Shown: positions 9,946 through 61,376, numbered from the stretch's first letter. The stretch: DNA of 64,000 nucleotides from Archaeoglobi archaeon JdFR-42 (GCA_002010305.1 MTND01000027.1:50514-114513); one strand, 5' to 3'. Translations and numbers: made by a program. Notes: a model not told the origin generated them from the letters alone.

Positions 9946-11145
9946 TTATATGTGGATCATCCTTGGGTGATCAAGATATTCCTCGATCCGGATCAATTCA
10001 TTGAGTTTAGCAATCCTTTCGCCTCCAACTACACCTGTTTTTATTAAAACTGCATTAAATGCGACACTCAAATGCGCGATGGTATCATCGGTGGTCTCTC
10101 CGGATCTATGAGAGACTATGATTTTGTAGTCGTTCTCCTTTGCCAAAGAAATGGCTTTAAATGTATCCGTGAGAGTGCCGATTTGATTGGGTTTTATGAG
10201 GACTGAATTGGCAGCACCCATTTCTATACCTTTCTTTATTCTCTTCACATTTGTTACAAATAGATCATCACCACAAACCATACACTTTACTCGTTTGTTT
10301 AGCTCAACAAACCCTTCGAAATCATCTTCATGGAAAGGATCCTCGATATATAGCAGTTCATATTTCTCAGCAAGATTGGTTATATGTTCGATCTGTTCTT
10401 CTGGGGTTAATTTTTTGTCCCGATACACGTATTCAGATCCGTTCCAGAGACTGGAAGCTGCTATGTCCACACCAATCCGTACATCCACTCCTGTTGACTC
10501 TACCACCTGATCTATAGCTTCAGAAAGTAATTCAAAGGCCAATTCATCATTTATACTTGCTGCCCAGGCTCCCTCATCCCCCTTTCCGGCAAAAATACCT
10601 TTTTTCTTAAATATGTTTTTCAGTTCTTGATGAACTGCCGAGTTTATTTGTACTGCTTCAAAAAAAGATTCTGCTCCCACAGGGATAATCAGGAATTCCT
10701 GAATATCTGTAGAGTCCATGGCATGAGCACCACCCCCGATCACGTTACCTAGTGGGTATGGTAGTTGATTTGCATATATGCCTCCAAGGTAAGTAAACAG
10801 TGGTAATCCAAAACCATCAGCAGCAGCCTTTGCAACTGCCAGAGATGTAGCAATAGCGAAATTACCCCCTATATTTGAAAAGTTATCAGTTCCATCGAGG
10901 TTTCTGAGAACTTCGTCTATGGTGATCTGATCCGAAACATCCATTCCAATCAGTTCATCTCGAATTTTTTTTCCTATTTCGGGTAGATTGGAGACATCAA
11001 CAACAACGGCTTCATCTTTCCCAACACTGGCTCCACTGGGGGCCATTGCAGATCCATAACTGCTTGTGGTGAAAATCTCGGCTTCTACGGTCTTATTTCC
11101 TCTGCTATCAAATACAACTCTGAATTGCACATCTTCGATAATCAC
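9946..11145 (-). CDS. eno: Enolase (short archaeal form)
   Basis: [31 protein letters not shown]. Confidence 0.9.
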
Positions 11146-11153
11146 ACAACCAC

Positions 11154-11408
11154 CTATAACAATCCCTTATCTTCCAACCAGATGAACCTATCTCTTCTTC
11201 TTCTAACTGTTATGGGTATAACCCCTTTATTAAATTCTTCCATGGCAATTTCAATGGGGTTTGTTCTGTCTGTTTTAATAAGAACAGGTGCCCCCATGGC
11301 TATCTGGAGGGCTCTTGCTCCTATAATGCGTGCTTTCTCGAACCGGGTGTATCCGGTTGGAAAACTTTTACTACTTTTTCTGGATTTATCGTCGGTTTTT
11401 ATCTCCAA
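11154..11408 (-). CDS. rpoK: DNA-directed RNA polymerase subunit K (Rpo6); start uncertain
   Basis: [23 protein letters not shown] core. The track ORF N-terminus (to 11477) overlaps tRNA-Pro, so the true start must be downstream. A TTG at 11408 is preceded by GAGGTGGT. Confidence 0.75.
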
Positions 11409-11427
11409 ACAACCACCTCGGTTCAAA

Positions 11428-11504
11428 TGGTGGGGTCGCTGAGATTTGAACTCAGGTCTCGGCGCCCCGAACGCCAAAGGATATCCAGGCTACCCCACGA
11501 CCCC
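11428..11504 (-). tRNA. tRNA-Pro (anticodon CGG), CCA encoded
   Basis: Folds by hand into a cloverleaf. Acceptor GGGGUCG/CGACCCC, D-loop with GG, anticodon stem UGGCG/CGCCG, loop UUCGGGG (U33, CGG, G37), T-arm CUGAG-UUCAAAU-CUCAG, discriminator A plus CCA. Confidence 0.9.
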
Positions 11505-11510
11505 ACCTTA

Positions 11511-11690
11511 TCAGTCAACCAGCTCTCCAAAGACCTCTTTATGAGTGAGAAACATACGCCTACAGCAGTACCTTTCAATTTCAAGGTCGTCTAGAACTTT
11601 ACCGGGAGGTTCTTCTCGAATACGTTGCTGATACTCCTCCCAATACTGTCCAATAACTTTTCCACAAGTGAAGCATCGTACGGGAAACAT
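11511..11690 (-). CDS. rpoN: DNA-directed RNA polymerase subunit N (Rpo10)
   Basis: MFPVRCFTCGKVIG...RYCCRRM zinc-binding pattern. The ATG at 11690 sits just after the rps9 stop; the track start at 11738 would overlap rps9. Confidence 0.9.
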   Translation of the reverse strand: MFPVRCFTCGKVIGQYWEEYQQRIREEPPGKVLDDLEIERYCCRRMFLTHKEVFGELVD

Positions 11691-11694
11691 AGCT

Positions 11695-12093
11695 TCACCT
11701 GTAGGACTTCTGTCTCCTCTTCCTTGCGCCACGACCACCGACTTTCTTGCTCTCCTTTCTTCTGCTATCGTTCACCAGCAAAGTTCTGTCATATTTCACG
11801 TATGCGTCCCTGAGTTCATGATCATCAGACCATTTAACGAGTCCCCTGGCTATGGCTGTACGTGCTGCCTCAGCCTGTCCTATAATCCCCCCACCTTCCA
11901 CATGAACCTCTATATCCACTTTTGATGCTATATCCTTTGCAATTACAAGAGGCTCCATTATCTTAATTCTTGCAAATTCTGGTTGAATCAGCTCAACAGG
12001 TCTTTTATTTACTCTAATTCGCCCTTTTCCATTTCGTATGGTAGCCCTTGCAACGGCAGTTTTACGTTTACCGCTGGTATTGACAATCTTCAT
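11695..12093 (-). CDS. rps9: 30S ribosomal protein S9
   Basis: [28 protein letters not shown]-terminal KSYR. Confidence 0.95.
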
Positions 12094-12557
12094 ACTTTCA
12101 CCTCGTATCCAAGGAACCTACTAACTTCAAGTAAGGAAACAGCTTTCCCGGATTTCACCCTATTCTCGAATAAGGCTTCTCCGATTTTTATATGGTCTCT
12201 GTCAGCAACTTCTGCTGGGATACCAATAAAAGCTCTAAAGTTACTGAGAGCTTCTCTCCCTTTAACGGTTTTATGTGGTAACATACCCCTGACAGTCCTT
12301 TTCAGGATTCTTTCCGGGTGTTTTGGAAAATGAGGTCCATAATCCTTAGAGCCCTTATCATGTTTAATTTTATATCTCCTGAATATCTCTTCTTGATCTC
12401 CGCTGATCAGAACTTTCTCTGCGTTAACTACTACTATTTTTTCACCGTTTAGAAGACGCTTTGCAATGATACTGGCCAATCTGCCAAGAACATGCCCCTC
12501 CCCATCAATAACTATAAAATCATCACCCAGTAAACTAAGAGACCGTTTGACATTCAT
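12090..12557 (-). CDS. rpl13: 50S ribosomal protein L13
   Basis: [29 protein letters not shown]. Confidence 0.9.
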
Positions 12558-12561
12558 AAGA

Positions 12562-12933
12562 TCACTCCATTATTATGATACCTGATCCATCAGGGTTGGA
12601 TTCCAGTAGTTCACCAATACTTATAGCTTTCCCTCCAGCCCTTATGATTTTCTCCCTTGCTTTCGCCGAGAAATTAAAGGCGGCTACCGTGACTGGTCTA
12701 TCAATCTTCCCTGCAGCAAGCACCTTACCCGGTACTATAACAACATTTCCTCCATATCTCTGGATTTTACTAACGTTGATCTCAGCCATTTTTCTAGTAG
12801 GCCGTAATAGTTTTCGAGCAACATCCTTCCACAGAGGTGCATTATTATCTCTTGCTGCTTTAAGCAGTGTGTCTGCCAATTTTTTTATTTCTGGATTCGT
12901 CTTTCTTTCAATGTACTTCTGTAACTTTGCCAC
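12562..12933 (-). CDS. rpl18e: 50S ribosomal protein L18e (GTG start at 12933 preferred over track start 12999)
   Basis: RKTNPEIKKL..., RPTRKMAEINVSKI, VIVPGKVLAAG. The GTG at 12933 is preceded by GGGGTGA at SD-like spacing. Confidence 0.85.
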   Translation of the reverse strand: MAKLQKYIERKTNPEIKKLADTLLKAARDNNAPLWKDVARKLLRPTRKMAEINVSKIQRYGGNVVIVPGKVLAAGKIDRPVTVAAFNFSAKAREKIIRAGGKAISIGELLESNPDGSGIIIME

Positions 12934-13266
12934 CGAGTCACCCCGCTTCTGTATTCCTACTGTCAACCGATATTTAAATTTAACTGTAAGTATCAACATA
13001 ATTAAAAAACTGTAAACATGTATGTTACACCACCCATAATGTAAACTGATAAATTATAGCTCTTGGTTTGCTATATGTTTTCAAATGAACTGGAAACACC
13101 AGAATCTTCATGTCAATATATACAGTTTTGGTAGGATCTTATCAATTGCCAACCTGTTTGAAATGGAATTGTGCGCATAGAATATCTGAAAATGTTATCT
13201 GAATTATTCACTTTTTGGAGAAAAAATTATATAGGAGTAAATCCAAAAACTAAATGTTTCATTTTC

Positions 13267-13322
13267 GGGGCAGAAGGCATTGCATCCATCCCCTCCGATG
13301 TCCCATGCCCCCTTTTCTTTTT
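13267..13322 (+). other. Isolated GC-rich stem-loop followed by T-tracts (candidate small RNA or attenuator)
   Basis: GGGGCA (13267-72) pairs with TGCCCC (13306-11). There is an inner GCAUC/GAUGU helix, followed by CTTTTCTTTTT. A TATA-like AATTATATA lies about 35 nt upstream. Confidence 0.3.
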
Positions 13323-13384
13323 ATTATTGATAAAAGATTTTCTTGAGATGAGATTATCTAATTCGACTTTGTTATTATTGGGCA

Positions 13385-14407
13385 ATGTTTATCTACCATT
13401 CTATGGATAGTATACTTAAAATGTCTATGGTGAAAGTACAGGAACTCACTAAAGTGTTTAACGGACTAGAAGCAGTTAAGAAAATCTCGTTTACAATAGA
13501 AGAGGGTGAGATTTTTGGGTTACTCGGTCCAAATGGAGCTGGAAAAACTACCACTATATCTATCCTATCTACACTATTATCTCCGACCTATGGAACTGCT
13601 TGGATTAATGGTCATAATGTGATCACAGATCCCGATGGAGTAAGGAAGTCTATAGGGGTTGTGTTTCAAGACCCGAGCCTTGATGATGAGCTAACCGCTT
13701 ATGAGAATATGGATTTTCACGGAAGGATGTACAGACTTCCACGATCAGAACGTAAAAAAAAGATAGAAGAGATGCTTACACTGGTTGACTTGTGGAACCG
13801 AAAAGACGATCTTGTTAAAACTTTTTCAGGTGGAATGAAAAGAAGACTTGAGCTCGCCAGAGGTCTTCTTCACTCTCCTAAGGTGTTATTCTTGGATGAA
13901 CCCACTCTCGGTCTCGATCCTCAAACTCGTCGTCATATATGGGAGTATATTGAAAGGCTCAACCGGGATGTTGGAATTACGATAATCCTCACAACCCACT
14001 ACATGGAAGAGGCTGACAAATTGTGCGATAGAGTTGCGATTATGGATGCAGACAAGATAATCGCCATGGATACTCCGGAAAACTTAAAAAATCTAATTAG
14101 AGGCGATCTTGTAATTGTTAAAGGTAACAACGCAGGTAAGTTGAAGTTAATTTCAGAGACAATTGAATGGGTTAGGTTTATCGGCGCTCATGATGGGATG
14201 GTTACCTTTAGTGTTGATGAAGCGGAAAAAAGAATTGCAAACCTGATCATAATGGCTCATGAAGCTGGAGTTCAGGTAGATAGTATTCAGATCAGACGGG
14301 CAACTCTTGAGGATGTATTTCTCCATTTTACAGGTAGAAATCTGAGAGCAGAAAAGAGTAATGGGATAGAAAAAATGAGAATGGCATGGAGAGCTATGAG
14401 GAGATAA
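13385..14407 (+). CDS. ABC transporter ATP-binding protein (ABC-2/DrrA-like); true start probably 13421 or 13427
   Basis: Walker A GPNGAGKTT, signature FSGGMKRRL, Walker B VLFLDEPT. Confidence 0.9.
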   Translation: MFIYHSMDSILKMSMVKVQELTKVFNGLEAVKKISFTIEEGEIFGLLGPNGAGKTTTISILSTLLSPTYGTAWINGHNVITDPDGVRKSIGVVFQDPSLDDELTAYENMDFHGRMYRLPRSERKKKIEEMLTLVDLWNRKDDLVKTFSGGMKRRLELARGLLHSPKVLFLDEPTLGLDPQTRRHIWEYIERLNRDVGITIILTTHYMEEADKLCDRVAIMDADKIIAMDTPENLKNLIRGDLVIVKGNNAGKLKLISETIEWVRFIGAHDGMVTFSVDEAEKRIANLIIMAHEAGVQVDSIQIRRATLEDVFLHFTGRNLRAEKSNGIEKMRMAWRAMRR

Positions 14408-14409
14408 AT

Positions 14410-15156
14410 ATGGAAGTAGTGTATACATTGTGGCTCCGAAGTATAAAACGATATGTACGATCAAAAAGCCGGCTTATCGGGAGCTTGGGCATGCCATTCT
14501 TTTTTCTAGCTATCTTGGGAATGGGATTAAATTCTCTTTTCACTGTGCCTGGATATGGAAAAGGGTATATGGCATTCATAACTCCAGGGGTTGTGGCAAT
14601 GACCATTTTATTCACATCCATGTTTTCTGGAATCCAAGTAGTGTGGGATAAGAGATTCGGATTTCTTAAAGAGACTCTGGTGGCCCCAGTGAAGAGAACA
14701 GAAATAATGCTAGGGCAGACTTTTGGAGGTGCGACTGTAGCTTTAATTCAGGGATTGCTAATTCTCAGTTTATCCTATTTCCTTGGGGTACACTTCTCTC
14801 TTATGAGTTTTCTCATTGCTTTGCCTTATATGGTATTGACAGGAATCTCTTTTACGGCATTAGGGATTGCTTTTGCATCTCAGATGGAGGATATGCATGG
14901 ATTTCAGCTCATAATCAATTTTATCGTATTTCCTGTATTCTTCCTCTCAGGAGCGTTGTTCCCTCTTGAGGGACTGCCTTCTTGGTTAAGAAACCTTGCT
15001 CTTGCTGATCCCCTTACCTATGGAGTAGAGGGTATGAGATTCGGTCTTTTGGGGGTTTCTCAAATCTCTCCGGTTACCAGTATTGTAGTCTTGACATCTT
15101 TTTCCTTTGCTACCGTCTTGGTTGGTGGTTTTCTATTCAGCAGAATCAGACTTTGA
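14410..15156 (+). CDS. ABC-2 type transporter permease
   Basis: Six predicted hydrophobic spans. The ATG at 14410 follows AGGAG and the upstream stop by 3 nt. Confidence 0.8.
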   Translation: MEVVYTLWLRSIKRYVRSKSRLIGSLGMPFFFLAILGMGLNSLFTVPGYGKGYMAFITPGVVAMTILFTSMFSGIQVVWDKRFGFLKETLVAPVKRTEIMLGQTFGGATVALIQGLLILSLSYFLGVHFSLMSFLIALPYMVLTGISFTALGIAFASQMEDMHGFQLIINFIVFPVFFLSGALFPLEGLPSWLRNLALADPLTYGVEGMRFGLLGVSQISPVTSIVVLTSFSFATVLVGGFLFSRIRL

Positions 15157-53080: not shown

Positions 53081-55150
53081 TTGAAACCCAACATAAAGCC
53101 TGTGGAAATTATAAAAACCGCCTGTGAACTCTGCGCTTGGGCCTGTGGAATGGATGTTTACGTTGAGAATGGTAAAGTTATAAGGGTGAAGGGTAGCAAA
53201 GAGAATCCTCTCAACAGAGGAAGGCTCTGCCCTAAAGGTTCTGCTGCGGTAGACTACCTTTACAGCAAAGATAGAATTCTGCATCCTATGAAAAGAGATG
53301 GTGAAGAATGGGTCAGAATCTCATGGGAAGAAGCGATAGATGTCATAGCCGAAAAACTGAAAAAAGTCAAGGAAGAATTTAGCCCAAAATCTTTTGCTGC
53401 CATTATAGGTATGCCCATTTTGCTGGGCGGCTCTTCAACTGTGGGTTTCATCAGGCGGTTTATGGATGTGTATGGCTCACCTAACTGCTTTTCTCCTGAA
53501 AGCATGTGTTACAGGCATGAAATAATTGGGTATATTTTAACCACTGGAAAGTTTTCGGTTGCCGATCCGGAAAATGCGAAATGCATAGTAGTGTGGGCCC
53601 ACAACCCTCATGCCTCAAAACCTCCATTAGCTTGGATGATTGAACATGCTAAAAAGAAAGGAGCCAGGATTATAGTAATAGACCCGAGAAAAACTAGAGT
53701 GGCGGAAATGGCGGACATACATGCCAGAATAAGACCAGGAAGCGATACAGCCTTAGCTATAGGATTGATGAAAGTTATTGTAGAAAAAGATCTGTATGAC
53801 AAAGAGTTTGTTGAAAACTATTGCCATGGATTTGATAGTCTTAAAGAGCATTTGAAGAATTATTCTTTAGAAGAGATATCAGAGACTACATGGGTGGATT
53901 TAGAGACAATCGAGGAGATAGCTCGGTCTATAGCAACCATAAAGCCATCATGCATAGTTCAGGGAGTAAATGCTTTAGATCAGGTTCCTACTGGAGTTCA
54001 GAATGCAAGAGCTGTTGCAATGCTTCATGCCTTAACTGGAAATATTGATGTGAAAGGAGGGTTTGTTAGAGCTTCGAGGGTTCATACCAACTCACTGAGA
54101 CTTCAAGAAATGCTAGACAGTATCCCTCTTGGGATAAAAGAACACCCCCTATTTTACCAGGTTTGGGGGACTCATCTGGGAGAAGGTCAAGGTATGTATT
54201 TATATGACGCCATTCTGGAAGAAAAACCCTACCCCATCAAGGCGTTATTCATAGCTGGCTCCAATCCATTGTTAACCTGGCCTAATTCAGGAAAACTGAA
54301 AAGAGCCCTTGAAAAAGTTGAATTCCTTGTTGTGATGGATCTGTTTATGACAGAAACGGCAAAGATGGCTGACATCTTCCTTCCTGCAGCCACATTTCTG
54401 GAAAGGACAGAATTATGTGATTATTACAGCGTTATTTTTGGAATTCCGTATATGGTGCTGAGAAAAAAAGTTATTGAACCACTGGGAGAATCGAAATCTG
54501 ATGTGGAATTCTGGTTGATGCTGGCCAAACAGATGGGTTATGATAAATATTTCCCATGGAATACTCCTGAAGAGATGCTGGATTATGTCCTTGAACCAAC
54601 TGGACTAACGGTGAAGGATCTCATGGAAAAATATCCTGCCGGCTTGTGGATGGGAGAAGTGAGGTATGGAGAATATATAAAGAGGGGCTTTAAAACACCT
54701 AGTAAAAAGGTTGAGCTATATTCCGATACCCTCAAAAAATTAGGCTATGATCCTGTTCCAGATCATAAAGAGCCCACAGAAAGCATATTTTCAGATAAAT
54801 CCAAAGACTTCCCGCTGATATTAACGACTGGAGCGAGGGTTATCAACTATACTCACTCTCAGCTCAGAAATGTCGAAAAATTGAGGAAATTAAATCCAGA
54901 CCCCTTCGTTGAGATACATCCTGCCACAGCAGCCCAGTATGGAATCAAAGACGGTGAAATGGTTGTTGTGAAAACTGAAAGAGGAGAAATAGAAATAAAG
55001 GCTAAAATTACTGAAGGAATACTTCCTGGTGTAATTAACATTCCCCATGGGTGGAGTAATGCGAATGTTAATGTGTTGACTTCAGAGAAGCCTGGGGATC
55101 CGATATCTGGTTGTCCTGAGTTGAAGGCTTTGCTGGCGAAGAAAGAATAA
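53081..55150 (+). CDS. Cytoplasmic molybdopterin (bis-PGD) oxidoreductase catalytic subunit, unknown substrate
   Basis: N-terminal C-x2-C-x3-C...C (CELCAWACG...CPKG) 4Fe-4S motif and no twin-Arg signal. Candidate Cys ligand in ESMCYRH. C-terminal beta-barrel (IHPATAAQYGIKDGEMV). The TTG start is uncertain. Confidence 0.75.
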   Translation: MKPNIKPVEIIKTACELCAWACGMDVYVENGKVIRVKGSKENPLNRGRLCPKGSAAVDYLYSKDRILHPMKRDGEEWVRISWEEAIDVIAEKLKKVKEEFSPKSFAAIIGMPILLGGSSTVGFIRRFMDVYGSPNCFSPESMCYRHEIIGYILTTGKFSVADPENAKCIVVWAHNPHASKPPLAWMIEHAKKKGARIIVIDPRKTRVAEMADIHARIRPGSDTALAIGLMKVIVEKDLYDKEFVENYCHGFDSLKEHLKNYSLEEISETTWVDLETIEEIARSIATIKPSCIVQGVNALDQVPTGVQNARAVAMLHALTGNIDVKGGFVRASRVHTNSLRLQEMLDSIPLGIKEHPLFYQVWGTHLGEGQGMYLYDAILEEKPYPIKALFIAGSNPLLTWPNSGKLKRALEKVEFLVVMDLFMTETAKMADIFLPAATFLERTELCDYYSVIFGIPYMVLRKKVIEPLGESKSDVEFWLMLAKQMGYDKYFPWNTPEEMLDYVLEPTGLTVKDLMEKYPAGLWMGEVRYGEYIKRGFKTPSKKVELYSDTLKKLGYDPVPDHKEPTESIFSDKSKDFPLILTTGARVINYTHSQLRNVEKLRKLNPDPFVEIHPATAAQYGIKDGEMVVVKTERGEIEIKAKITEGILPGVINIPHGWSNANVNVLTSEKPGDPISGCPELKALLAKKE

Positions 55151-55226: not shown

Positions 55227-55784
55227 ATGAGAGTGTACGTGGTTAATAATTATGGACAGTATAACCACCTAATCTACCGGACTCTCAGGGATCTGGAGGT
55301 TGAGACGCGTTTGATCTCTAACAATACCTCTCTCGACTCTTTAGAAAAACTGGATCTTGATGGTCTTATAATCGGAGGAGGACCCTCGATAGAGCGTACA
55401 GGCAATTGCCGGGAATACATCCAGAATCTGGATATACCCATTCTGGGCATATGTCTCGGTCATCAGTTGATTGCAGAAACATTTGGAGGTAAGGTAAGGA
55501 GGGGAGAGATGGGAGGTTATGCTGAAGTATATGTGCGTATTGTGGCGTATGACGAACTCTTTGAAGGATTTGATAAACAGATACGGGTATGGTCTTCTCA
55601 TGCCGACGAGGTGTATGTTATGCCAGATGAATTCAAATTGCTTGCCACTTCAGAAATATGCGACATCGAAGCAATGAGACACATAAGAAGACCACTGTAT
55701 GGTATTCAGTGGCATCCAGAAGTTGCTCATACCCAGTTTGGGGAAGAGACCTATCAAAACTTTCTCAAAATCTGTAAAAGATAA
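55227..55784 (+). CDS. guaAA: GMP synthase glutamine amidotransferase subunit A
   Basis: Class I GATase: ILGICLGHQL, QWHPE. Length about 185 aa, typical of split archaeal GuaA. Confidence 0.85.
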   Translation: MRVYVVNNYGQYNHLIYRTLRDLEVETRLISNNTSLDSLEKLDLDGLIIGGGPSIERTGNCREYIQNLDIPILGICLGHQLIAETFGGKVRRGEMGGYAEVYVRIVAYDELFEGFDKQIRVWSSHADEVYVMPDEFKLLATSEICDIEAMRHIRRPLYGIQWHPEVAHTQFGEETYQNFLKICKR

Positions 55785-56024
55785 GTGTATATCGATATGA
55801 TATGAAGGGATTGTGAGTGACTGTTTACGGAGTTGTAATACTATAAGCGCCTTTTCCACTTCTGGGTTATTCAGAGAGTGATTCAACTTGTATTAAATAT
55901 TACAGTTTTAAAATAATTGAACAGTTTTCTTTACAAATTACCGTAAACTATATATATATTTCAGTTAAACGTAAAGATAAATTGGAGAGTTAGCTATATA
56001 TGTTCAATAACAGAGGTGTTGTGA

Positions 56025-57203
56025 ATGGGTAAGAAAGCAGAAGAATTACCCCAGTATAAACAATTCGCAGAATGGATAGAGAACAGGCATGACTATGCCA
56101 AAAAGTGGCAACAGAATAACGGTGGGAAAGTGGTTGGGTACCTATGTACATATGTCCCAGAGGAAATCCTTTACGCAGGAGGAGTGCTTCCGGTCAGGAT
56201 TCTAGGGTCCCATGAACCAGAGAGTATAACAAGGCCATACCTTCATGACATGTACTGCCCTTTCTGCCATGATTGTCTGGCTCAGGGTTTAGAGGGAAGG
56301 TTTGATTATCTTGATGGAATCATGCTTGCCCAGTCATGTCTACACTTAAGACAAGTGTTTTTCACTTGGGAAGAGCGTGTCCCTGTAGACTGGAGCTATT
56401 ACATGCATTTCCCTCATGGCGTAAATAACAATCATGCTGCTGAATATCTCAAAGGAGAGCTTGAGAAATTTAAAGTTGCTGTAGAGGAATGGACAGGCAC
56501 TACCATAACCAACAAAGAGCTGGATGATGCCATTGAAGTGTACAATAAGAATCGACAGCTTATGAAACAGGTATATGAATTTAGAAAACTTGAAAACCCG
56601 CCGATTACTGGCCTTCATGCTATGGAGATGGTTATCTCCTCACAAATGGTAGATAAAAAAGAGCATAACGAAGTTCTGGAATCTCTTCTGGAAGATTTAA
56701 AGGATGCAGAAGTGGATAGGGATACCGGAACCAGGCTTATGATCATAGGAAGTGAAGATGACGACAGGGAGTTCTTTAAGATGGTAGAATACGAACAGAA
56801 TTATTCTGCTACATTTGTGTTTGAAGAACACTGTACCGGAGCGAGGTATTTCTGGGATGAGGTAAGACCTGAAGAGGACAGGCTGATGGCTATTGCAAAA
56901 AGATATGTTAACAGAGTTCCATGTCCAGCTAAGGACTGGCCGACTTATGGATTCTATGGAAGAAGAAGATTCAATTGGATTGAAAAGTGGGTAAAAGAGT
57001 TTAACGTTGACGGAGCGATCATAATGCAGCAGAAATTCTGTGATCCCCACGAACTGGACATCCCTTCTTTGAGAGAATTGCTGGATAATTTGAACATACC
57101 CCATCTGTTCCTAGAATTTGACATAACAGTCCCTGTTGGACAGTTCAGGACTCGTGTTGAGGCTTTTCTTGAGTCTATTGGGGAGGATGATTTGTTCTTT
57201 TAG
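56025..57203 (+). CDS. Benzoyl-CoA reductase/2-hydroxyacyl-CoA dehydratase family subunit (BcrC/BzdN-like)
   Basis: GKVVGYLCTYVPEEILYAGGVLPVR N-terminal block of the HgdB/BcrC family. GAGGTG SD upstream. Confidence 0.7.
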   Translation: MGKKAEELPQYKQFAEWIENRHDYAKKWQQNNGGKVVGYLCTYVPEEILYAGGVLPVRILGSHEPESITRPYLHDMYCPFCHDCLAQGLEGRFDYLDGIMLAQSCLHLRQVFFTWEERVPVDWSYYMHFPHGVNNNHAAEYLKGELEKFKVAVEEWTGTTITNKELDDAIEVYNKNRQLMKQVYEFRKLENPPITGLHAMEMVISSQMVDKKEHNEVLESLLEDLKDAEVDRDTGTRLMIIGSEDDDREFFKMVEYEQNYSATFVFEEHCTGARYFWDEVRPEEDRLMAIAKRYVNRVPCPAKDWPTYGFYGRRRFNWIEKWVKEFNVDGAIIMQQKFCDPHELDIPSLRELLDNLNIPHLFLEFDITVPVGQFRTRVEAFLESIGEDDLFF

Positions 57204-58559
57204 GTGGTGAGAGGCATGGCAAAAGAGTTTAAAGTTGAACCATTAAAGGTATGGAATGATTTTAAGAAGTACAGAGAACAGTATTACCGAGATTATCTTG
57301 AAGCAAAGGACAATGGGGCAGTCAGGTGGGCAGGTTCAGCCTGGGCCTTTGATGCAGTTCCCGCTGGTCTTGGGGAAGACGTGTATCCACTGACAGGAGA
57401 GCCATATGGTGCAACGGTTGCGTTTTTCAAGGATTTCTCCAGAAGGGCTCTTGAGAAAGCAGAAAGAGCTGGTGTACCAAGAGATCTATGTGGATATCTC
57501 AGGAATTATTGGGGTTCAATAATGATGGACAAGTATGTTCTCACCGATGGTACCGAAGTTGAACCATTCCCGAAACCCGATTTCAATTACACCATTCACA
57601 TCTGCTGTACTCATGCAAAGTGGTATCATAGGGCTGGTGAGCTGGAAGGAGATGTACCCACTTATGCCGTAGATATCTCAGTAGGCCCTGGATATCTTCT
57701 TGACGACAGAAAAATTAACTATGTGGTTAGACAGCTCGAAGACTCCATCAAGTGGATGGAACAGATAACTGGCAGAGAATATGACGACGAGCTATTGATA
57801 AAAGCAGTGCTGGCAGAAGCAGATTCCATGTCTACATGGGCAAAAATATGTAAGCTTAACCAAAATATACCTGCTCCTCTTGAAGAGAAATCAATGTTTA
57901 CTCTCTATGCTCTACTCGTTCTTCATAGAGCCGATCCGAGGGTGGCAGAACTGTACAACAAACTGTATGAAGAGACCCAAGATAGAGTAAAGAGAGGTAT
58001 AGGCGCTATAAACAACGAACAGTTCAGATTCCTGACAGACAACCCTCCACCTTGGGCTTTCCTGAATGTTTATAGATATCTGGAAAAAGAATATGGAGCT
58101 GTCTCACTTGGGTCAGTATATACTTTTGGCTTGGAAGGTGCATGGCTTGGGATGGATGAAAAAGGAGAGACATGGAGATGGGAACCAGCTCCTACACCTG
58201 AAGAAGCTGGAGTCGAGATATCCAATCGAGAAGATGCACTGCGATGGACTGCTGAGTTCAATCTCAGGTACAGGCCGGGGTGGCAGCATCCGTACTCCCA
58301 TAAAATCAGAAAAATCGAGACCCTCCAGATGATAAAGGATTGGAAAGCAGATGCAATGATCATGCACCTCAACAGAGGGTGCGAGTTATGGGCTATGTCA
58401 GAACTCGAGGTGAGAGATTATTTGGTGAAACATAATATCCCTGTTGCTACTTACGAGGGCAACATGGCAGACCCAAGAGAATTCGATGAAGCAAGGACAT
58501 GGAACGTGATAGATTCCTTTATGGAGAGCCTTGGAATCAAGAAATTATCCAAGCAGTAA
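57204..58559 (+). CDS. Benzoyl-CoA reductase/2-hydroxyacyl-CoA dehydratase family subunit (BcrB/BzdO-like)
   Basis: 451 aa, abuts the previous gene. HICCTHAKWY and MHLNRGCE Cys contexts are typical of this family. Confidence 0.65.
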   Translation: MVRGMAKEFKVEPLKVWNDFKKYREQYYRDYLEAKDNGAVRWAGSAWAFDAVPAGLGEDVYPLTGEPYGATVAFFKDFSRRALEKAERAGVPRDLCGYLRNYWGSIMMDKYVLTDGTEVEPFPKPDFNYTIHICCTHAKWYHRAGELEGDVPTYAVDISVGPGYLLDDRKINYVVRQLEDSIKWMEQITGREYDDELLIKAVLAEADSMSTWAKICKLNQNIPAPLEEKSMFTLYALLVLHRADPRVAELYNKLYEETQDRVKRGIGAINNEQFRFLTDNPPPWAFLNVYRYLEKEYGAVSLGSVYTFGLEGAWLGMDEKGETWRWEPAPTPEEAGVEISNREDALRWTAEFNLRYRPGWQHPYSHKIRKIETLQMIKDWKADAMIMHLNRGCELWAMSELEVRDYLVKHNIPVATYEGNMADPREFDEARTWNVIDSFMESLGIKKLSKQ

Positions 58560-58565
58560 AAGGAG

Positions 58566-59345
58566 GTGATCAAATTGATTACAGCCGGTATTGATGTGGG
58601 CTCTAAATATACAAAGGCAGTGGTATTAAAAAATGGGGCAGAAATTGTTGGGTATGCTAACATAAGGACTGGAATGGATCACGAGAAATCAGCCAGAGAG
58701 GCCCTTGAAGAGGCCTTGAAAGCTGCAGGGATTAACAGAGACCAAGTAGACAAAATAATAGCAACCGGATTTGGAAAAACTTCAGTGCCTTTTGCTGATG
58801 ATGAGATATCTCAGGTAGTTGCAGCTGGTAAAGGTGGGTACTTTGCCAGACCGTCTACCCGAACTGTGATTGAAGTAGGTGCTGAAGAGTCCCGTGGAAT
58901 AAAGCTCGCAGAAGATGGTAAGATCAGGGATTTCGCTCTAGCAGATAAATGTGCTGCTGGCGCAGGCTCTTTCACAGATGCTATGGCACGGTATTTAGAG
59001 GTCCCCCTTGAAGAATTTGGGCAACTCTCTCTAAGATCCAAAGGGGCGGCTGCCATGAACGCTCAATGTGTTATTTTTGCTGAGTCAGAAGTGGTCTCTC
59101 TTGTACATCAGAACGTACCTAAAGAAGAGATCTCAAGAGCGATCCATGATGCAATAGCTGACAGAGTCGCTTCTATTGTCCGGAGAGTGGGTATAGAAGA
59201 TGATGTACTAGTAGTCGGAGGCCTTGCCAATGATCCAGGGTTCATCGACTCTCTGAAAAGAGAACTGAACACAGAGGTGTATCTGCCCGAAATTATTGCT
59301 CCTGAATACATTCCAGCTTTAGGAGCAGCTCTTATGGAGGAATAA
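58566..59345 (+). CDS. BcrAD/BadFG-type ATPase (electron-activating subunit 1)
   Basis: GIDVGSKYTKAVV, ADKCAAGAGSF and NAQCVIFAESEV (cluster-bridging Cys pair). Confidence 0.8.
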   Translation: MIKLITAGIDVGSKYTKAVVLKNGAEIVGYANIRTGMDHEKSAREALEEALKAAGINRDQVDKIIATGFGKTSVPFADDEISQVVAAGKGGYFARPSTRTVIEVGAEESRGIKLAEDGKIRDFALADKCAAGAGSFTDAMARYLEVPLEEFGQLSLRSKGAAAMNAQCVIFAESEVVSLVHQNVPKEEISRAIHDAIADRVASIVRRVGIEDDVLVVGGLANDPGFIDSLKRELNTEVYLPEIIAPEYIPALGAALMEE

Positions 59346-59352
59346 ACCTGAG

Positions 59353-60252
59353 GTGGTGAAAATGGCAGAAGCAATTCAGGAAGGAGAATACTGGAGATGG
59401 CCTGAAACAGTCTGGGTTGATGAAAGCAAGAACTGGAAGGAGGCTGAGGTAATCAGCTGTGGGATCGATCTTGGCTCTGTGAGTACACAGGCAGTGATAA
59501 TGCTAGATGGTGAGCTTTATGCTTATGCAAGCTTCAGAACTGGCTCCAGCAGTCTTGACAGCTCTGAGAGAGTTGTGAAAGCGGTTCTGGAAAAGATCGG
59601 AGATCTTAAACTTGAAGACATTCACTACATTGTCGGAACGGGATATGGACGAGTTAGTATTCCCTTTGCTCATAAAACTATCACAGAGATTGCATGTCAT
59701 GGTAGGGGTGCTAATTTTCTATATGGGCCAACTGTGAGAACTATATTGGACATGGGTGGTCAGGACTTGAAGGCCATCAAAGTTGATGAAAGGGGCAAAG
59801 TAGTCAATTTCCTCATGAACGACAAGTGTGCTGCGGGAACCGGAAGGGGTGTTGAAGTAATGGCAGATCTTCTTGCAATTCCCATTACAGAAGTGGGGCC
59901 TTTATCCCTCCAGGTCGAGGAAGAGCCAGAGCCAGTCAGTACAACTTGTGTGGTGTTTGCAAAATCCGAAGTGTTGGGTCTTATGAGGAAAGGCTGGCCC
60001 AAAGAAAGAATTCTGGCTGCATATTTCAGAGCTATGGCATCCCGTGTAGTTGAGCTACTGGAGAGAGTAGGAGTAGAAGAGGACTTTGCCATTACTGGGG
60101 GTATTGCAAAGAACATTGGAATGGTAAAAAGGATCGAGAATATGCTCGGTGTAAAAGCACTGAAACCGGACTTCGACACCCAGATTGCAGGAGCGGTAGG
60201 TGCTGCTCTGTTTGGCAGAGCCCTCTATCTTAAGGGGAAAAAGAAAAAATAA
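59353..60252 (+). CDS. BcrAD/BadFG-type ATPase (electron-activating subunit 2, with N-terminal extension)
   Basis: GIDLGSVSTQAVI, NDKCAAGTGRG and STTCVVFAKSEV. Clearly a distinct paralog of the preceding gene. Confidence 0.8.
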   Translation: MVKMAEAIQEGEYWRWPETVWVDESKNWKEAEVISCGIDLGSVSTQAVIMLDGELYAYASFRTGSSSLDSSERVVKAVLEKIGDLKLEDIHYIVGTGYGRVSIPFAHKTITEIACHGRGANFLYGPTVRTILDMGGQDLKAIKVDERGKVVNFLMNDKCAAGTGRGVEVMADLLAIPITEVGPLSLQVEEEPEPVSTTCVVFAKSEVLGLMRKGWPKERILAAYFRAMASRVVELLERVGVEEDFAITGGIAKNIGMVKRIENMLGVKALKPDFDTQIAGAVGAALFGRALYLKGKKKK

Positions 60253-60278
60253 ACCTTTACTTCTTTTTTTATTTCAGG

Positions 60279-61376
60279 GTGTGGGACATGGCAACCATTA
60301 CCATCAATGGAGATAAATATGAGGTGGAGGCAGGTTCGACCATCCTTGAGGCTGCTCTTGAAAATAAGGTGTATATTCCTAATCTTTGCTATCACCCCAA
60401 CGTTTCTTCGGCTGTAGGGATGAAACCTATTCATGAGATATTTAGAGGTAAAGAAAAATTTGAGAGTGGGAATGATGAGCCATATGAAGGGTGCGGCCTT
60501 TGTGTTGTTGAAGTAACTGGGGGAGAGATAGTTAAGGCATGCCACCAAAAAGTGGAGAACGGAATGGAGATCGTTACAGAGACAGATCAGTTAACCTCTT
60601 TAAGGCAGAAGGCCCTGATAAAAATATTCTCTCATCATCCTCATGTATGCATTACCTGTGAATACAGAGAAGGTTGTGATCGCATCCAGTGTACTTTTGG
60701 AAATCCGGTAGAAGAACGCTGTTGTGATTTATTTCCAAAGTGCGAATTGAGGTTCATTGCCGAATATGTGGGTTTGAGTTCAGATACTCCAAAGTATACA
60801 TTTGAAGATTTGCCGGTAGTGGAAGAGACTCTTTATAGATGGAACTTTAACTTGTGCGTTAACTGCACCAGATGTGTCAGAGGATGCAGAGAAGTACGAG
60901 AGGCAACTGCTCTTGGATTCATTATGCAAGATGATGCCCTTGTTGGAAGAACAGGTCCAACAGATAAAGAATCTGGCTGTAAATTTTGTGGGGTGTGTGT
61001 GGAGATCTGTCCTACTGGTGTGGTACGGGACATTAAAAAACCTCCCAGGAATAAATGGAGGGATTCCGTTCAGGATAAAATGCTTGCTCCCACAAAATCT
61101 CTCTTCGAACTGATAAAAGAAAACCTGGCCACTGTACCAGAGGCACCGGGTGTATATAGGCTATATGACGAAAATCAGGAACTCATTTATATTAAAGGAA
61201 CTCCTGATCTCAAACAGGATCTGATGGAGGAAGAAGAAATCAGAGAAGAGGCGAAATTCTTTGATTACGAAGAGTATGAAATGTACACGATGAGAGAGAG
61301 TGAACTTATCCAGGAATATTTACAGAGACATGGAAGGATGCCTCCTTTAAACGATGAGCTGGATGATCTATTTTAA
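60279..61376 (+). CDS. NuoG-like multi-cluster ferredoxin (2Fe-2S + His/Cys 4Fe-4S + 2x4Fe-4S) fused to a GIY-YIG-like C-terminal domain; likely ATG at 60288
   Basis: ITINGDKYEVEAGSTILEAA...CGLCVVEV, HHPHVCITCEYREGC, CVNCTRCVRGC, CKFCGVCVEICP. The C-terminus has PGVYRLYDENQELIYIKGTPDLK...RESELIQEYLQRHGRMPPLN. Confidence 0.75.
   Translation: MWDMATITINGDKYEVEAGSTILEAALENKVYIPNLCYHPNVSSAVGMKPIHEIFRGKEKFESGNDEPYEGCGLCVVEVTGGEIVKACHQKVENGMEIVTETDQLTSLRQKALIKIFSHHPHVCITCEYREGCDRIQCTFGNPVEERCCDLFPKCELRFIAEYVGLSSDTPKYTFEDLPVVEETLYRWNFNLCVNCTRCVRGCREVREATALGFIMQDDALVGRTGPTDKESGCKFCGVCVEICPTGVVRDIKKPPRNKWRDSVQDKMLAPTKSLFELIKENLATVPEAPGVYRLYDENQELIYIKGTPDLKQDLMEEEEIREEAKFFDYEEYEMYTMRESELIQEYLQRHGRMPPLNDELDDLF

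Follow-up and report, generated by a model that had tools for sequence, protein, structure and literature searches.

Organization of the Gene Cluster and Its Surroundings

Within the window, the 64,000-nucleotide stretch of Archaeoglobi archaeon JdFR-42 DNA that we analyzed, positions 56025-61376 are occupied by five open reading frames, all on the + strand and separated by gaps of 0, 6, 7, and 26 nt. A first-pass annotation had described a five-gene, same-strand set with 0-26 nt gaps, and our ORF listing confirmed this arrangement. Its assignment of two HgdB/BcrBC-family subunits and two different BcrAD/BadFG ATPases was upheld by Pfam searches, which detected HGD-D domains in the first two ORFs, BcrAD_BadFG domains in the third and fourth, and Fer2_4 and 4Fe-4S domains in the fifth. 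None of the five ORFs is disrupted, and the cysteines expected for the Fe-S clusters have been kept in each. The gene order N, O, P, Q on a single strand, with two distinct BcrAD-type ATPases, is the arrangement of Bzd-type class I systems. Reassessment of the start sites from the N-termini of homologous proteins probably places the ATG codons of the second, fourth, and fifth genes at 57216, 59362, and 60288, respectively.

The first gene is preceded by an AT-rich intergenic region of 240 nt (55785..56024, + strand), which contains TATA-like stretches; a GAGGTG ribosome-binding motif precedes the bzdN ATG by about 8 nt, and the region is the probable promoter of the operon. A sigma-70 scan of this region returned matches at chance level, the consensus being bacterial and uninformative for an archaeon. 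Among the sequencing runs of any kind returned for this DNA, none was an RNA run. Further upstream lie genes for a class-I glutamine amidotransferase (55227-55784) and a molybdopterin oxidoreductase (53081-55150) and an adenine-deaminase-like gene, and downstream follow genes for a YeiH-type PF03601 protein, TrmB, and TRAM. The neighbors named previously were thereby recovered, as was the lack of aromatic-pathway genes: within 5 kb of the operon, there are no genes for CoA ligases, crotonases, or beta-oxidation.

Subunits of the Predicted Reductase

The first gene (56025..57203, + strand) encodes a BzdN-type subunit of 392 amino acids that resembles PDB 8s02_B and Ferp_1184 of Ferroglobus placidus and is predicted to hold the [8Fe-9S] double-cubane cluster. 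It scores 432.7 bits against TIGR03190, for which the cut-off is 453.8. Since the validated BzdN protein of F. placidus (405.2) and those of three other Archaeoglobi (395-428) also score below this value, the cut-off excludes the entire Archaeoglobi clade. The match to the BzdN chain 8s02_B amounts to 422.8 bits (E 1e-125), and the equivalents of Arg53, Arg267, Arg290, His330, Ser239, and Gln324 are conserved in the alignment to this chain (roles according to PMC11971306). Seven cysteine residues are common to both proteins; the cluster has six Cys ligands.

The BzdO-type catalytic subunit (451 amino acids; 57204..58559, + strand) scores 496.9 bits against TIGR03191, above the equivalog cut-off of 448.6, and 464 bits against the BzdO chain 8s02_A. 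Its Cys96, Cys134, and Cys393 correspond to Cys95, Cys128, and Cys380 of the structure, the ligands of the aqua-[4Fe-4S] cluster, and its Glu66 and His137 to the acid-base pair Glu65/His131. Likewise, Ser45, Trp47, Tyr98, Tyr306, and Leu310 are the counterparts of Ser44, Trp46, Tyr97, Tyr298, and Leu302. The pocket for the benzoyl thioester has thus kept the equivalents of Trp46, Tyr97, Tyr298, and Leu302; Gln274 and Leu383 of the structure are replaced by Pro and Trp, and Gly382 by Leu. These three substitutions are common to every Archaeoglobi sequence in our alignment, including that of F. placidus.

The two following genes encode the ATPase subunits, which would form a heterodimeric electron-activating module. 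The BzdP-type protein (259 amino acids; 58566..59345, + strand) was recognized by PF01869 and TIGR00241 and is 66% identical to Ferp_1186, but just 35% identical to the adjoining BzdQ-type protein (299 amino acids; 59353..60252, + strand). The latter scores 438 bits against TIGR03192, above the cut-off of 380.2, and 220 bits against MbdQ (PDB 9gai_D), its nearest solved relative. The cysteine motifs reported by the first-pass annotation can be read directly in both translations: DKCAAG is combined with CVIFAESEV in BzdP and with CVVFAKSEV in BzdQ.

Relationship to Characterized Enzyme Systems

F. placidus has the same five genes, arranged identically (Ferp_1184-1188), with identities of 69, 77, 66, 76, and 59%, the last of these between the fifth protein and Ferp_1188. 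According to PMC6500515, which cites Holmes et al. (2012) as well as Schmid et al. (2015, 2016), Ferp_1184-1187 are the benzoyl-CoA reductase used in F. placidus expression work. The genome studied here is from another Archaeoglobi family, a basal one. In our tree, its large subunit groups with that of its family mate inside an Archaeoglobi clade with 98-100% support, and BzdO falls into the Archaeoglobi Bzd clade, next to F. placidus. The subunit order N-O-P-Q is also that of the BzdNOPQ-BzdM-BzdV system of Aromatoleum (Azoarcus) sp. CIB, whose BzdNO structures have been solved (PDB 8S02, 8S1T, 8S2R; PMC11971306). At about 50-55% identity, the archaeal proteins match both the [8Fe-9S] environment of Aromatoleum BzdN and the three-Cys aqua-[4Fe-4S] site of BzdO with its Glu and His; they differ by the replacement of Gln274, Gly382, and Leu383, and their operon lacks a small ferredoxin gene. 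The Thauera-type BcrCBAD/MbdONQP enzymes (PDB 9G87/9GAI) belong to the same class and share the architecture of the ATPase, but their large subunits are distant (MbdO 50 and MbdN 94 bits; TIGR02260/02263 far below cut-offs). The operon quite probably encodes a class I (ATP-dependent) benzoyl-CoA reductase of the Bzd type, orthologous to Ferp_1184-1188.

It is extremely improbable that the genes instead specify an activator together with either a 2-hydroxyacyl-CoA dehydratase or a reductase of the double-cubane-cluster (YjiM/DCCP) type. The large subunits do share PF06050 with such proteins and give weak NCBIfam matches to HadB/HadC and to the double-cubane reductase, yet these matches stay far below the respective cut-offs (NF052456, 180.1 versus 700; NF052455, 139.9 versus 750; NF040772, 185 and 38 bits versus 350), and PDB 6ENO scores only 90 and 24 bits. 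HadBC and HadI (PDB 3O3M, 4EHT) belong to the same fold family as the large subunits and the ATPase, respectively, but PDB scores are three to four times higher for BzdN/BzdO than for HadB/C (109/147 bits), and in our tree a branch of length 5 leads to the HadB-like paralogues. Moreover, HadI is one homodimeric activator, whereas two different ATPase genes are present here, and the double-cubane site is predicted in the N subunit, while HadB has a BzdO-like three-Cys [4Fe-4S] site (PMC11971306). Both the NCBIfam and PDB scores thus support the class I bzdNOPQ layout that had been proposed over a dehydratase.

Partner Genes and the Probable Substrate

Most recognizable partner genes of the reductase are encoded on other contigs, the pathway genes being dispersed singly amid housekeeping genes. 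Orthologues of two F. placidus crotonases are present: an Oah-like protein (79% identity, contig C24) and a Dch-like protein (55% identity, contig C8). Against TIGR03189 and TIGR03200, the Dch-like and Oah-like proteins score 168 (cut-off 292.5) and 160 (cut-off 464), respectively, and their F. placidus counterparts score the same, likewise far under the NCBIfam cut-offs. Their presumed assignment as Dch- and Oah-like follows that reportedly made by Schmid et al. (2015). Both genes are found together in 18 of the 96 Archaeoglobi genomes surveyed, all 18 of which contain bzdO; one additional genome has bzdO but neither hydratase. The hydratases are kept in every sufficiently complete bzdO-positive relative; in Geoglobus and several MAGs, 4-20 kb separate them from bzdO. 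Orthologues of the Ferp_1180-type ferredoxin (contig C11) and of Ferp_1181 and Ferp_1183 exist in the genome as well. On contig C22, a CoA ligase gene whose product scores above the TIGR02262 cut-off adjoins the genes for a three-subunit Mo enzyme with 4-hydroxybenzoyl-CoA reductase alpha as its top match. Every one of these reductase-like subunits remains below its cut-off, and close orthologues of them (E <= 1e-150) were found solely in this archaeal family; we regard these C22 genes as a candidate 4-hydroxybenzoate module. No 6-hydroxycyclohexenoyl-CoA dehydrogenase (Had) was identified in the genome, the top TIGR03201 match reaching 105.9 bits against a cut-off of 338.65, and F. placidus has no TIGR03201 match at E <= 1e-20. 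The genome search suggested by the first-pass annotation recovered Dch-like, Oah-like, and benzoate-CoA-ligase-family genes, but not Had.

From the missing neighbors, that annotation had inferred that the substrate might not be benzoyl-CoA. Our data do not support this proposal: the operon has orthologues in F. placidus, nearly all catalytic and cluster-binding residues are conserved, and Dch-like and Oah-like orthologues are encoded elsewhere in the genome. The F. placidus bzd operon is likewise devoid of adjoining dch, had, or oah genes. This archaeon demonstrably employs the enzyme for benzoate, yet over 100 kb separate its operon from the dch- and oah-like genes, which are remote from the operon in the present genome too; the lack of adjacent pathway genes therefore does not imply another substrate. 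The surroundings of the two operons differ in other respects. A ferredoxin and the 177-aa Ferp_1183 protein are encoded directly upstream in F. placidus, and thiolase, DUF35, and luciferase-like genes directly downstream; these are absent here or located on other contigs. F. placidus furthermore possesses a second HGD-D pair plus ATPase beside its Oah-like gene, which this genome lacks.

A Bzd-family, ATP-driven low-potential reductase acting on another aryl-CoA or an unrelated thioester would accommodate the absence of pathway genes within 5 kb, the exchange of Gln274, Gly382, and Leu383 in the BzdO pocket for Pro, Leu, and Trp, the failure to find Had, and the case of Geoglobus acetivorans, which carries the same genes and for which no growth on aromatic compounds has been observed (PMC4600277). 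We nevertheless consider such an activity unlikely, as F. placidus degrades benzoate via an enzyme with an identical active-site variant and an equally isolated operon, the catalytic residues and the Tyr, Trp, and Leu residues that bind the thioester and the ring are kept, and Dch-like/Oah-like orthologues were detected solely in operon-carrying genomes. That the large subunits branch within the Bzd clade, adjacent to those of F. placidus, also counts against it. A placement of this kind, with the remaining pathway encoded elsewhere in the genome, had been named beforehand as the outcome speaking for an ordinary benzoyl-CoA reductase, and it is largely what we found. Throughout the Archaeoglobi clade, it is usual for the neighbors to be absent and for Dch, Oah, and BzdN to fall short of their NCBIfam cut-offs, and neither is a sign of a new substrate. 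The enzyme is probably a known one, a further Archaeoglobi version of a reductase characterized in F. placidus and structurally solved in Aromatoleum.

[quoted passage not shown] The genome corresponds to rG16, a published MAG ('Ca. Polytropus marinifundus'). Its description already mentions a benzoyl-CoA reductase, and its published metabolism centers on alkane oxidation and fermentation; this emphasis, the scattering of the pathway genes, the unrecognized Had, and the precedent of G. acetivorans would all fit such a restricted role. We judge it quite improbable, given five intact ORFs with their Fe-S cysteines, the retention of the partner genes in all sufficiently complete bzdO-positive relatives, and the cluster of ligase, Mo enzyme, and ABC-transporter genes that suggests uptake of an aromatic acid. 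This basal Archaeoglobi lineage with an alkane-type MCR seems to hold most recognizable steps of the ATP-dependent aromatic route plus the candidate 4-hydroxybenzoate module, with Had still missing.

A Model for Electron Flow and Ring Reduction

From its homology to the F. placidus enzyme and to BzdNO as solved in Aromatoleum, we infer the activity, substrate, electron donor, and physiological role of the operon in the following model. 2-Oxoacid:ferredoxin oxidoreductases would reduce the low-potential 2[4Fe-4S] ferredoxin, the Ferp_1180 orthologue, which would in turn pass electrons to the BzdP/BzdQ ATPase heterodimer at its bridging [4Fe-4S] cluster, a delivery in which the product of the fifth gene may assist. 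ATP hydrolysis would then push electrons onto the [8Fe-9S] double cubane of BzdN, from where they would move to the water-ligated [4Fe-4S] cluster of BzdO. Here, Glu66 and His137 are predicted to aid hydrogen-atom/electron transfer to the ring of benzoyl-CoA, yielding cyclohexa-1,5-diene-1-carbonyl-CoA. The Dch-like hydratase, a dehydrogenase, the Oah-like ring hydrolase, and enzymes of beta-oxidation would complete the route. Benzoyl-CoA itself could be supplied by the benzoate-CoA-ligase-family enzyme and the 4-hydroxybenzoyl-CoA-reductase-like Mo enzyme.

The Fifth Gene Encodes a Short BzdV-Like Protein

The last gene of the operon (60279..61376, + strand) specifies a protein of 365 amino acids that was initially taken for a multi-cluster ferredoxin. 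Domain searches and BLASTP bear out the Fe-S module, with an N-terminal [2Fe-2S] site and several [4Fe-4S] sites, but a plain ferredoxin it is not: a DUF7508 domain forms its C-terminus, and by its sequence it is a BzdV-like protein of a widespread, uncharacterized short form. A long form of 840-860 aa occupies the same position in most Bzd loci; in it, a GltD-like FAD/NAD(P)H module lies between the N-terminal 2Fe-2S/4Fe-4S module and a DUF7508 domain at the C-terminus. From their position and the published function, we infer that these 840-aa proteins are Azoarcus BzdV. BLASTP aligns the short protein with the long form in two blocks (residues 6-251 at 45% and residues 267-365 at 41-47% identity); the central Fer4_20 and Pyr_redox_2 (FAD/NAD(P)H) module of the long form, and presumably of the Aromatoleum counterpart, is absent. 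A tblastn search of the genome for a long-form BzdV elsewhere gave no match at E <= 1e-5.

The Cys/His pattern is invariant across 81 short-form homologues, and on three bacterial contigs the short form is linked to BcrAD ATPases. Tentatively, it may be devoted to the BcrAD-type ATPase module, serving for electron entry or for docking, with the DUF7508 domain and its conserved acidic ...DDLF end as the docking element; Ferroglobus-type archaea and several bacteria might then recharge their class I benzoyl-CoA reductases without involving NAD(P)H. This recurrent companion of BcrAD-type ATPases bears on how strict anaerobes feed electrons to a costly class I reductase.

A Bzd-Type Reductase Operon

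The five plus-strand open reading frames (ORFs) at 56025-61376 encode BzdN, BzdO, BzdP, BzdQ and a fifth protein, and they represent a known enzyme of the Bzd type that had already been recorded for this lineage; what interest remains attaches to the short BzdV-like partner and to the missing Had. The ORF listing reproduces exactly the extent, lengths and small gaps (0, 6, 7, and 26 nt) described in the first-pass annotation, and the cysteine motifs which it quoted for the two ATPases are present in the translations. Pfam assigns the first two proteins to HGD-D and the next two to BcrAD_BadFG, and finds 2Fe-2S and 4Fe-4S domains in the fifth. The recognition of the Bzd-type family was well founded, as NCBIfam equivalog models name BzdN (432.7 bits; cut-off 453.8), BzdO (496.9 bits; cut-off 448.6) and BzdQ (438 bits; cut-off 380.2), and the Thauera-type, dehydratase and double-cubane reductase models score three to ten times lower on the operon proteins. 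That BzdN falls just short is a feature of the clade as such, since the Ferroglobus placidus protein (405.2) and those of three other Archaeoglobi (395-428) also stay below the cut-off. Searched against the sequences of solved structures in the PDB, the large subunits matched Aromatoleum BzdO and BzdN with 464 and 423 bits, compared with 109/147 bits for HadB/C, 50/94 for MbdO/N and 24/90 for the double-cubane protein.

Residue roles were taken from Fuchs et al. (2025; PMC11971306) and read against pairwise alignments with the window proteins. In BzdO, all three cysteines that bind the cluster are retained, as are the Glu/His pair beside the cluster-bound water and Ser44, Trp46, Tyr97, Tyr298, and Leu302 (structure numbering); in BzdN, seven shared cysteines are retained, as are the three arginines and the histidine that surround the distal cubane and, in the channel, Ser239 and Gln324. 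BzdO differs from the structure at four positions, Gln124 to Thr, Gln274 to Pro, Gly382 to Leu, and Leu383 to Trp. The last three are common to all Archaeoglobi in a 14-sequence alignment, F. placidus included, and the other sequences in it mostly carry the Aromatoleum residues there, with the Leu383 position somewhat variable. As F. placidus shares these substitutions, the pocket is that of the F. placidus enzyme and not a new one.

Relationship to the Ferroglobus placidus Enzyme

The closest named relative of the window BzdO is that of F. placidus (77% identity), in whose chromosome all five genes recur in unchanged order (Ferp_1184-1188; 69, 77, 66, 76, and 59% identity). Ferp_1184-1187 were treated as the four reductase subunits in expression work (PMC6500515). 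In a tree of 82 Bzd-type O subunits, with two HadB-like paralogues as outgroup, the nearest neighbor of the window BzdO is the protein (90% identical) of its family mate, an Archaeoglobaceae MAG, and the two belong to an Archaeoglobi clade with 98-100% support that also contains F. placidus, Geoglobus and Archaeoglobus MAGs. BzdO scores above its cut-off in 16 of the 96 Archaeoglobi genomes, and near-threshold or truncated copies occur in three more.

The operon is flanked upstream by genes for a glutamine amidotransferase, a molybdopterin oxidoreductase and an adenine-deaminase-like protein, and downstream by PF03601, TrmB and TRAM, just as the first-pass annotation described neighbors devoid of aromatic-pathway genes. 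Its proposal of an unknown substrate, argued from these absent neighbors, finds no support. The F. placidus reductase genes likewise have no adjoining pathway hydratase, dehydrogenase or hydrolase, so that a solitary operon says nothing about the substrate, and the pocket is the same; the phylogeny suggested as a check also speaks against it, as BzdO falls within the Archaeoglobi Bzd clade with F. placidus and the HadB-like paralogues fall outside.

Ahead of the first gene lies an AT-rich spacer of 240 nt that contains a GAGGTG motif. Scans for sigma-70 promoters (a bacterial model, applied here to an archaeon) and terminators gave counts at chance level. The GC content of the operon, 0.439, lies in the top 2% of same-size windows of the genome (mean 0.402, sd 0.018); the Oah-like gene, the ferredoxin gene and the C22 MoCo gene, all discussed below, likewise exceed their own flanks by 3-4 points. 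Such a composition hints weakly at a foreign source or at strong constraint. Since the branching order in the Archaeoglobi BzdO clade mirrors the family split, we do not claim horizontal transfer of the operon.

The Remainder of the Benzoyl-CoA Pathway

A genome-wide search with the NCBIfam models for dch, oah, and had (TIGR03189, TIGR03200, and TIGR03201) gave no match over the cut-offs. We dropped these cut-offs as a test of absence, as F. placidus misses them at almost equal scores, and the models can therefore not decide for the Archaeoglobi lineage. Orthology was more informative: on other contigs of the same genome, C24:10127-11092 is the orthologue (79% identical) of an F. placidus Oah/BadI/MenB-like crotonase and C8:10956-11717 that (55%) of its Dch-like crotonase, each solitary amid housekeeping genes. 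We take the F. placidus crotonases as putative Oah and Dch from their best HMM matches, their position and the assignment reportedly made by Schmid et al. In F. placidus itself, a distance of more than 100 kb separates the dch- and oah-like genes from those of the reductase, and they adjoin the ligase Ferp_1044.

Both crotonase orthologues occur in the same 18 of 96 Archaeoglobi genomes, every one of them bzdO-positive, and the only bzdO genome without both is 81% complete. Within genera, a genome that misses one of bzdO, Dch-like and Oah-like genes misses all three, and the three are spaced 4-20 kb apart in Geoglobus and in several MAGs. Related genomes not being independent, this co-occurrence is a consistent pattern rather than a statistic. 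The search for dch, had, oah, and a CoA ligase, which the first-pass annotation had advised, was thus successful for the Dch-like and Oah-like orthologues and for a ligase on contig C22; no Had was identified in the genome, and the clusters of its relatives show no SDR or Zn-ADH candidate.

Further counterparts of F. placidus genes are scattered. Contig C11 carries orthologues of Ferp_1180 (69%), the co-regulated ferredoxin of the F. placidus reductase (PMC6500515), and of Ferp_1181, and C13 that of the 177-aa Ferp_1183 protein. The genome also has genes on C3 for a thiolase, a DUF35 protein and an indolepyruvate/2-oxoacid:ferredoxin oxidoreductase, and on C4 for a hydroxyacyl-CoA dehydrogenase and a crotonase.

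PF04909 (Amidohydro_2), a family that includes aromatic-acid decarboxylases and hydratases, recurs near bzd or Oah-like genes, at C24:12830-13606 (locus L048) in the window's own genome, in Archaeoglobus MAGs (L052:7091-8697) and on one bacterial contig (L142:797-1642). An additional BcrAD ATPase adjoins the Oah-like crotonase in F. placidus (L047:111-3224), Geoglobus (L051:17300-19926) and a MAG (L052:17101-17886). Further dehydratase-like ORFs accompany it in the first two, and those of F. placidus encode a pair of HGD-D-type proteins (418 and 366 aa); the window's genome holds no close counterpart of either large subunit.

A Candidate Feeder Module

A run of genes at C22:27019-40074 (L050:6019-19074) encodes 2Fe-2S, MoCo (810 aa) and FAD (324 aa) proteins, a ligase, MobA, XdhC and a Liv-type ABC transporter. 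The ligase belongs to the benzoate-CoA-ligase family (390.8 bits; cut-off 375.25) and comes after the genes for the three subunits of a Mo enzyme of the xanthine-dehydrogenase type. The best match of the large subunit is 4-hydroxybenzoyl-CoA reductase alpha (681 bits vs. a cut-off of 995), and all three subunits score below the NCBIfam cut-offs. The FAD subunit holds a four-cysteine insert, which we rejected as diagnostic of 4-hydroxybenzoyl-CoA reductase because aldehyde oxidases also have it. By its gene content, the run fits a candidate module for the activation and dehydroxylation of 4-hydroxybenzoate to benzoyl-CoA. Among the 96 Archaeoglobi searched, close orthologues (E <= 1e-150) of the large subunit turned up in this archaeal family alone, and the Mo enzyme shows no co-occurrence with bzd elsewhere in the Archaeoglobi, so that it counts only as supportive.

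The Short BzdV-Like Protein

At most of 80 related Bzd loci, the gene after bzdQ encodes a 95-aa eight-cysteine ferredoxin and the next one an 830-870 aa protein, which combines an Fe-S module with a GltD-like FAD/NAD(P)H module and has the position and the predicted role of BzdV; one of two such proteins scanned also matched DUF7508 weakly. The 365-aa fifth protein of the window aligns to this long form in two blocks, residues 6-251 (45% identity) and 267-365 (41-47%), up to a common ...DDLF end, and lacks its central 490 residues. A tblastn search of the window's genome found no long BzdV at E <= 1e-5.

The short form is kept in F. placidus, Geoglobus, the family mate and an Acetothermia bacterium, and its family comprises about ninety clusters, annotated merely as 2Fe-2S proteins; the invariant Cys/His pattern of the short forms suggests five clusters. 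Look-alikes by language model and by structure connect the C-terminal domain with DUF7508 and, loosely, with GIY-YIG folds, as leads only. On three bacterial contigs (L141, L142, and L143), a short form of 360-390 aa with Fe-S and DUF7508 parts again follows BcrAD ATPases and the 95-aa ferredoxin. The Desulfomonile contig has no HGD-D gene within 8 kb of it, and on the Chitinivibrionales contig a single fusion protein of 572 aa contains both ATPases. Some Archaeoglobus MAGs (loci L056-L059, from Archaeoglobus sp. UBA234, JdFR-27, JdFR-32, and a related MAG) instead carry genes for a NuoE-like 2Fe-2S, a NuoF-like FMN and a 742-753 aa BzdV-like protein after bzdQ (10073-14675), a set predicted to be an electron-bifurcation-type module replacing the short form.

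The C termini of BzdN (57195-57203) and of the fifth protein (61355-61376) both consist of an acidic stretch and then DDLF(F). Among 81 short-form homologues, and likewise in the long BzdV-like proteins, ...DDLF is kept at the end almost without exception; speculatively, it may be a docking motif shared by BzdN and the fifth protein.

The Host Organism

The genome (2.149 Mb; 99.6% completeness, 2.15% contamination) represents its own family within the Archaeoglobi and includes a 2,748-bp contig of deviant GC. It has two divergent mcrA genes (C29:7634-9313 and C26:6862-8496; 537 and 587 bits vs. a cut-off of 768), one of which adjoins methanogenesis markers 15, 5, 6, 7, 17, and 3 (C29:1952-7055; L054). 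Marker 15 is the third BcrAD-type ATPase of the genome and no part of a reductase. The rG16 MAG from Juan de Fuca crustal fluids has been described as basal in the Archaeoglobi, with about 2.13 Mbp and two divergent McrABG operons, and its paper states that a contig of 2,748 bp was taken out; from these matching features we infer that the window's genome is this published MCR-bearing MAG. DNA of the operon is present in a 2016 subsurface metagenome run.
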